Source: Cetorhinus maximus (lineage: Eukaryota). Taken from it: a stretch of DNA of 64,000 nucleotides. The stretch covers positions 19,840,001-19,904,000 of the forward strand of contig NC_135909.1 in the NCBI RefSeq assembly GCF_964194155.1, read 5' to 3'. Of this stretch, positions 46,885-46,975 are shown one piece after another (the first letter of the stretch is position 1; each line of letters begins with the position of its first letter). The notes beneath the pieces are model-generated. The model ran no database searches, was not told where the DNA came from, and saw only the letters and a list, made by a program, of their open reading frames with translations. Both the position numbers and the translations under genes were made by a program.

Positions 46885-46975
46885 GGCTCGTTGGTCTAGA
46901 GGTATGATCCTCGCTTCGGGGATTTTCGTTAAATGATCGTGCGAGAGGTCCCGGGTTCAAATCCCGGGCGAGCCC
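46885..46975 (+). tRNA. tRNA-Pro(CGG) with a 19-nt intron at 37/38
   Basis: GGCTCGTTGGTCTAGAGGTATGATCCTCGCTT-CGG-G-[46921-46939]-TGCGAGAGGTCCCGGGTTCAAATCCCGGGCGAGCCC; removing the insert gives a 72-nt Pro cloverleaf. Confidence 0.9.

Follow-up and report, generated by a model that had tools for sequence, protein, structure and literature searches.

Most tRNA-Pro gene copies of the shark Cetorhinus maximus carry an intron at the standard site

Most tRNA-Pro gene copies in the genome of the shark Cetorhinus maximus, including the one studied here, bear an intron at the standard site. This gene, a tRNA-Pro(CGG) at 46885-46975 (+), carries a 19-nt insert at 46921-46939, directly 3' of G37. Its coordinates refer to the window, by which we mean the whole 64,000-nt stretch of DNA that was analyzed (contig C32:19840001-19904000, RefSeq NC_135909.1, within a searched genome of 3.99 Gb). 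From the sequence comparisons presented below, we consider it probable that the insert is a canonical intron of a Pro family with members for all three anticodons, that TSEN and RtcB likely remove it, and that the window copy represents a CGG subtype that is young, duplicated and probably dispensable.

Results

Structure of the window gene

The original prediction placed the insert after G37 of a near-consensus Pro tRNA, and this reading holds. When introns of 1-60 nt were permitted, ARAGORN called a tRNA-Pro(cgg) with a 19-nt intron; after removal of the insert all 20 scored cloverleaf pairs are intact, and of the 72 positions of the body three (16, 26 and 66) differ from the intronless Pro(CGG) gene of this genome. 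The gene was detected neither by ARAGORN run without introns nor by Rfam at its gathering score, and ARAGORN with unlimited intron length returned spurious long-intron calls. The 5' exon (46885-46920, +; positions 1-37) contains the A box at 46892-46902, the anticodon at 46917-46919 and G37 at 46920, and the 3' exon (46940-46975, +; positions 38-73) contains the B box at 46954-46964 and a U7-G66 wobble pair. As in canonical tRNA introns, the insertion falls between residues 37 and 38, and the exons rebuild a cloverleaf with A and B boxes. The length of 19 nt, like the 12-20 nt of the Pro family as a whole, is within the published range for tRNA introns, given as 6-133 nt (PMC4090602) and as generally 15-30 nt (PMC10485636). 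It reflects a one-base extension of a G run that is specific to the window's subtype; the family norm is 18 nt, and an older subfamily has 13 nt. Residue A16 marks the intron-bearing CGG family, and C26 marks the window's subtype; the marker of most intron-bearing TGG copies is C20.

The flanks of the gene suggest the extent of its transcript. A putative 14-nt leader occupies 46871-46884 (+), and 46871 is the likely transcription start of the family because a retrocopy on C4 (L038, see below) starts at the matching base. Downstream (46976-47008, +), a putative 26-nt trailer is followed by a T3-C-T3 run at 47002-47008 that is the likely terminator. The gene had been described as having no adjacent T-run terminator; it is true that none is immediately adjacent, but the T3-C-T3 run lies 27 nt downstream, sister subfamilies have T6-T7 at this place, and a perfect T4 is first reached at 47026-47029. 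The gene retains 9 CpGs, with a CpG observed/expected ratio around it of 0.86 as compared to a tile median of 0.45. A Pfam search of four ORFs near the gene found nothing. A motif at 46843-46852 recurs ~35-45 nt upstream of intron-bearing Pro genes with all three anticodons on contigs C32 and C22 (L042, L045-L066, L140 and L144-L166) and may be an upstream Pol III element or a sign of shared ancestry.

A large intron-bearing Pro family amplified by segmental duplication

An exact anticodon-arm pattern applied to the whole genome returned 97 intron-bearing Pro copies, 89 of them on contig C32, which were split by eye into 27 CGG, 20 AGG and 50 TGG copies. Because this pattern misses the window's subtype, nine copies of which share the 19-nt intron and C26, the number of Pro copies with an intron is at least 106. 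The same approach found seven intronless Pro genes (3 TGG, 3 AGG and 1 CGG), and an eighth, a TGG gene with a swapped 31-39 pair, completes the set of eight; for CGG, 36 intron-bearing copies contrast with a single intronless gene. These counts (at least 106 with an intron versus 8 without), together with an intron in 51 of 52 Arg-TCG copies, bear out the earlier view that Pro joins Arg-TCG as a second intron-bearing isotype outside the standard set, and that this is no accident. The genome-wide comparison of Pro introns that had been proposed as a check revealed that most other Pro copies also carry an insert at this site, with the bases that pair at -4 and -6 largely kept and lengths of 12-20 nt.

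The family was amplified by segmental duplication on one chromosome arm. Of the 40 candidates, out of 270, that were scored in a DNA search with the window gene, all are 92-100% identical to it, 38 lie on contig C32 and 5 are identical. The copies on this contig have 2-3 kb flanks in common at 93-99.5% identity and are therefore segmental duplicates, and in a flank-motif search all 62 blocks recovered (62/62) were on the same contig or on two unplaced contigs. Three other origins were considered and rejected. A one-off insertion or an assembly error is ruled out by the 5 identical and at least 40 similar copies; a SINE or retrocopy origin of the window copy is ruled out by the 2-3 kb flanks common to its paralogues on contig C32; and an anticodon switch from one of the standard four intron families is ruled out because the body is of the same Pro type as in the intronless genes.

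Beyond the cluster, AGG genes with near-perfect bodies lie on C12 (two) and C22 (one); their introns, of 18, 12 and 17 nt, are unrelated, and each gene has a T-run terminator at most 4 nt away. C22 also carries two weaker CGG genes with further unrelated introns, and the four genes of AGG or CGG type on C12 and C22 that are intact or nearly so have introns of 12-20 nt. The intronless Pro genes occupy five dispersed loci, have the same body as the intron-bearing genes and end in tight terminators. At C8:122812478 (L161), a Pro(TGG) gene without an intron, which has C20 and in which G31-C39 is a compensatory pair, lies beside an intronless AGG gene. Six matches on contig C32 (L162 and five more) are intron-bearing copies of the Pro body with a cytosine at loop position 32 and the anticodon TGC (Ala); the one that was fetched has a damaged 3' end.

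Splice geometry and the missing anticodon-intron pair

The window copy departs from standard introns at the anticodon-intron (A-I) pair. As originally noted, the antepenultimate intron base is T; U32 (T32 in the gene) is consequently left without a standard partner at intron position -3, and because the A-I pair is absent we class the window copy as a variant rather than a standard TSEN substrate. The same is true of all CGG copies in the pattern set, as T occupies -3 in 27 of 27 rows and the A-I pair occurs in 0 of 27, whereas a purine that pairs with U32 is found in 67 of the 70 AGG/TGG rows; the three exceptions are CGG-type introns behind a C34T anticodon. The older 13-nt subfamily also has T at -3, and two CGG introns on C22 have G there. 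A pair between residue C32 and G at -3 is present in 10 of 10 standard-family precursors and in both Arg-TCG precursors (2/2) checked in this genome.

The adjacent bases of the intron can pair with the anticodon loop; in canonical precursors the anticodon-intron helix adjoins a 3-nt bulge at the 3' splice site. In a set of 40 distinct Pro introns, U33 has a partner at -4 in every case (40/40) and G35 one at -6 in 38; at -5, a G that matches C34 occurs in 17 of 17 CGG introns as compared to 8 of 23 AGG/TGG introns; since the Pro intron sequences are related, these counts describe a conserved 3' end and not independent events. In the window copy, -4, -5 and -6 can pair with U33, C34 and G35 in the canonical register, with bases -6 to -3 at 46934-46937 (+); this register is read from the sequence and is not favored by energy folding. 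Folding calculations instead pair the anticodon of the window copy with the last three intron bases, which hides the 3' splice site. Ten control precursors were folded in the same way; the canonical register exceeded P 0.5 in 2 and was missed in the other 8, so that the calculations are non-diagnostic.

Published work indicates why position -3 matters. The 3' cut by human TSEN requires the pair between residue 32 and intron position -3, and a C:C mismatch blocks it (PMC8479045); the structure of this pair has been described (PMC10539383). In fly cells, an A-U pair reduces splicing, a G-U pair leaves almost no product and C-C abolishes it (PMC6614914). In the available text of the human and fly studies, U-U is not among the mismatches described (PMC8479045, PMC6614914). 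A ruler mechanism in which TSEN acts with the intron sequence left free is set out in section 5 of PMC4090602.

Retrocopies record intron-bearing transcripts

On C4, L038 comprises a 14-nt leader, an intron-bearing Pro(CGG) and a 26-nt trailer, flanked by a 15-bp target-site duplication. Its similarity to the cluster is confined to 132 bp, and its trailer, which matches that of the window copy at 25 of 26 bases, ends before the T3-C-T3 run. As judged from its structure, this retrocopy shows that the CGG family was formerly transcribed in the germ line with its intron. Because tailless retrocopies are internally primed, the end of L038 is consistent with a terminator at this point and is not proof of one. 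In a second retrocopy, L143, the duplication spans 17 bp and the end lies inside the intron. No spliced copy with A16 was found among the matches listed (100 of 104), where all six dispersed A16 copies still contain the intron or the beginning of it. This absence is weak evidence, because an Arg-TCT retrocopy on C1 (L155), which has an 11-bp target-site duplication, keeps its intron too. L154 and L155, both on C1, are dispersed Arg-TCT copies with trimmed ends and retained introns, and L155 suggests that end processing precedes splicing. As in the tailless tRNA retropseudogenes described in PMC5322556, L038, L143 and L155 alike lack an A tail, have target-site duplications and overlap by a few bases at the 3' junction; unlike them, the window copy is a segmental duplicate.

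Selection on the exons

Exon constraint was assessed in loci collected by their flanks, for which 62 blocks were found, 30 fetched and 29 parsed; L188, which has an indel in the 5' exon, was left out. A comparison that yielded 3.0% exon and 4.5-10% flank divergence was set aside as biased, its loci having been chosen by gene similarity, and flank-anchored sets were used instead. Among 25 non-identical blocks, exon divergence is 4.5% and flank divergence 4.6-5.1%, the exons being as divergent as the flanks overall because dead copies are included. A tree was built from 1541 flank columns of 28 loci, with L202 left out and the decayed L205 as outgroup. With decayed copies set aside, the copies with an 18-nt CGG intron show 5 exon changes where 13.6 would be expected (p 0.016); their introns changed 9 times, never at -6 to -3. 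On the branch to L205, 13 exon changes were counted and 12.0 expected. The 18-nt CGG family therefore looks modestly constrained, a signal that depends on the L205 outgroup and on a set without L188 and L202. The window's 19-nt subtype has 9 exon changes where 2.4 are expected (p 0.0015), and four of its nine copies are further damaged at positions 10, 13, 19, 37, 40 or 68. This excess could reflect relaxed selection combined with transcription-linked mutation. The young 19-nt subtype thus looks unconstrained, although the window copy itself is undamaged.

Neighborhood and reach of introns among isotypes

The window lies in a histone/tRNA cluster. A replication-type histone set (H1, H4, H3, H2A and H2B, with 3' stem-loops) occupies 4331-20788; all named homologues among the 120 matches listed for its H1 are from sharks and rays, the nearest being mackerel sharks at 95-96%. 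Three of the four tRNA-like genes in the window bear introns, as had been counted originally, but one of these is a decayed copy. In addition to the Pro gene, a tRNA-Arg(TCG) at 54375-54464 (+) has a 17-nt intron (54412-54428), the pair of residue C32 with G at -3 and, in this copy, A37. The decayed copy, at 40551-40641 (+), belongs to the Arg-TCT intron family; its intron is 18 nt (40588-40605), its anticodon is now TTT and its stems are damaged. The fourth, a tRNA-Leu(CAG) at 62271-62353 (+), is intronless and has a damaged acceptor stem. Over the 464 kb of the cluster examined with ARAGORN, Gly-TCC, Ser-GCT and Leu-CAG genes are intronless. Two further Arg copies were seen on contig C32. 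Near 19.914 Mb (L089:510-600), one has both body and intron of the Arg-TCT type and the anticodon TCG; it represents a switch of anticodon and stands apart from the main Arg-TCG intron family. At the cluster end, an Arg-TCG copy at C32:21498898 (L153) has a divergent 16-nt intron.

The original prediction had taken a second intron-bearing isotype as a sign of systematic intron spread, a view that the wider survey does not support. The high density of introns in the window arises because intron-bearing blocks were duplicated (3-kb flanks, 93-99.5%) and not from repeated insertion, and introns are absent from Arg-ACG (0/14), Arg-CCT/CCG (0/6) and Val (0/100 among the matches listed, of 103). Further isotypes were searched in classes; the motifs of all these patterns are general tRNA consensuses. 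The Ala/Lys/Cys/Phe/Thr/Ile-AAT/Tyr class gave 42 long-spaced matches, all Tyr, alongside 495 short-spaced control matches, and the Gly/Glu/His/Asp class gave one long-spaced match, a SINE, alongside 468 control matches (Asp being absent among the 100 listed). Two classes were searched with no short-spacing control. The 82 matches of the Ile-TAT/Asn/Met/Trp/Gln class are Ile-TAT genes, a decayed Ile-like repeat, SINEs and two Arg-TCT copies, and no Asn, Met, Trp or Gln intron was read among them; the 35 matches of the Leu/Ser/Thr class comprise 3 Leu-CAA genes with an intron, 1 Tyr-like sequence and a remainder that is noise or odd. A generic A-box/B-box pattern gave 2716 matches and was swamped by a SINE. 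All four human intron families occur with introns in this genome, so that, among the isotypes covered, Pro and Arg-TCG form an extra intron set atop these four.

The survey also brought up several unrelated elements. A dispersed, decayed repeat with ~20 matches on C1-C25 derives from an intron-containing pre-tRNA-Ile(TAT) with the intron retained. About 18 of the 100 listed control matches are an identical Lys-like tRNA with an altered anticodon loop that is scattered over many chromosomes, with a mobile element as its probable carrier. A second large tRNA cluster lies on C24, and its Val genes at 43021668, 52804092 and 62496428 have the anticodon GAC, which is unusual for eukaryotes. Three long tRNA-like elements, at C24:41521542, C24:63042609 and C623:30994, have A and B boxes but cannot clearly be assigned to an isotype, and one of the fetched loci (L167) was not called by ARAGORN. 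Tandem arrays of Tyr and Gly-GCC genes were found at C5:8.66-8.74 Mb, C1:97.60-97.67 Mb and C4:131.5 Mb, with 28 Tyr matches on C5 and ~47 Gly-GCC matches on C1.

Discussion

The Pro introns resemble known tRNA introns in type and differ from them in where they occur. Human tRNA introns are reported to be confined to four families, Pro not among them (PMC11747266), and four is also the number of families usually quoted for vertebrates. Like these introns, the Pro insert lies one base 3' of the anticodon, measures 12-20 nt, has a free sequence and leaves the body intact; unlike these, it belongs to Pro (and Arg-TCG), follows a loop with U rather than C at residue 32, occurs in genes that coexist with intronless ones of the same body and, in the CGG subfamily, lacks the 32/-3 pair. 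The tRNA-Pro(UGG) introns of Saccharomyces cerevisiae share the isotype and the site (PMC4090602); they are fungal and, in the available text, described for UGG only, whereas here three anticodons of a vertebrate are involved. A recent preprint reports abundant intron-bearing tRNA loci and a histone/tRNA cluster in sharks (bioRxiv 10.1101/2025.06.08.657570). Its main text, as available, names no isotypes (proline 0, arginine 0), which its Fig. 3A or supplements may do, and does not analyze A-I pairs, retrocopies or selection. The literature seen, including the available text of PMC2888827, did not mention Pro or Arg-TCG introns of sharks, and GtRNAdb or RefSeq tRNAscan tables may list the genes. 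The type of tRNA intron is known and its expansion in sharks already reported; the isotypes and the absence of the A-I pair were not found in print.

In the mechanism that we favor, Pol III would start ~14 nt upstream of the gene and stop at the T run 27 nt downstream, TSEN would locate both splice sites by measuring from the tRNA body, and RtcB would ligate the exons. In AGG and TGG precursors, U32 would pair with the purine at -3 as usual, and normal splicing of these precursors is very likely. In CGG precursors, the U-U opposition would be closed by U33-A, C34-G and G35-U/C pairs in the same register; the balance tips slightly towards these precursors being spliced, perhaps inefficiently. 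That the window's very copy yields mature tRNA is doubtful. The cluster appears to evolve by birth and death, and the eight intronless genes on other chromosomes would serve as a backup independent of splicing. A broader reading, which we advance only tentatively, is that sharks route most Pro and nearly all Arg-TCG tRNA through splicing, and that Pro(CGG) precursors have long served as natural TSEN substrates despite their U-U opposition, three further pairs holding the register.

Alternatively, the CGG family may be transcribed and not productively spliced, its A-I pair having been lost early, and may hitch-hike in duplicated histone/tRNA blocks; it would then yield unspliced or 5'-cut intermediates, and the intronless CGG gene and UGG wobble would read CCG codons. 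Several observations point this way: no CGG copy in the cluster has the A-I pair, which is necessary in the human and fly assays, the retrocopies are all unspliced, many of the 62 blocks found by their flanks are decayed, the window's subtype appears unconstrained, and an intact intronless CGG gene is present. However, T at -3 was already in place in the older 13-nt subfamily, yet the 18-nt exons remain near-identical despite ~5% flank divergence; the -4/-5/-6 register is kept, also in the two unrelated CGG introns of C22; and the retained intron of L155, a copy from the standard Arg-TCT family, deprives the unspliced retrocopies of much of their force. We regard a CGG family that is not productively spliced as unlikely.

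Two other accounts concern the history of the introns. They may be old vertebrate introns that cartilaginous fishes retained and bony vertebrates lost; this proposal addresses direction only and is compatible with normal splicing. Pro introns from four chromosomes cannot be aligned with one another except at the 3' end and for this reason appear old, and yeasts show both loss and gain of introns (PMC4090602, section 18). Against this stand the intronless Pro genes with the same body at five dispersed loci and the confinement of human introns to four other families (PMC11747266), which makes gain in one lineage the shorter path; we regard an ancestral origin as unlikely. Introns might also be spreading through isotypes by repeated insertion, as two extra isotypes (four anticodons) and several unrelated intron sequences could suggest. 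The other isotype classes tested lack introns, Gly-TCC, Ser-GCT and Leu-CAG are intronless within the same cluster, and near-identical copies have kilobase flanks in common, so systematic spread is highly improbable and already largely refuted.

For annotation, these findings imply that intron-blind settings miss such genes and that decaying cluster duplicates inflate shark tRNA counts. The isotypes underlying the expansion of introns that was reported for sharks in 2025 would be Pro and Arg-TCG. In a genome where most copies for Arg-TCG and for all three Pro anticodons bear introns, and same-bodied intronless genes persist alongside, intron gain and purpose can be put to a natural test, and the CGG subfamily is a ready substrate on which to test the requirement of the A-I pair for 3' cleavage. 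If splicing with a U-U opposition does take place, the vertebrate intron set would exceed four families, and the supply of Pro tRNA may be tunable by the rate of splicing against an intronless backup.
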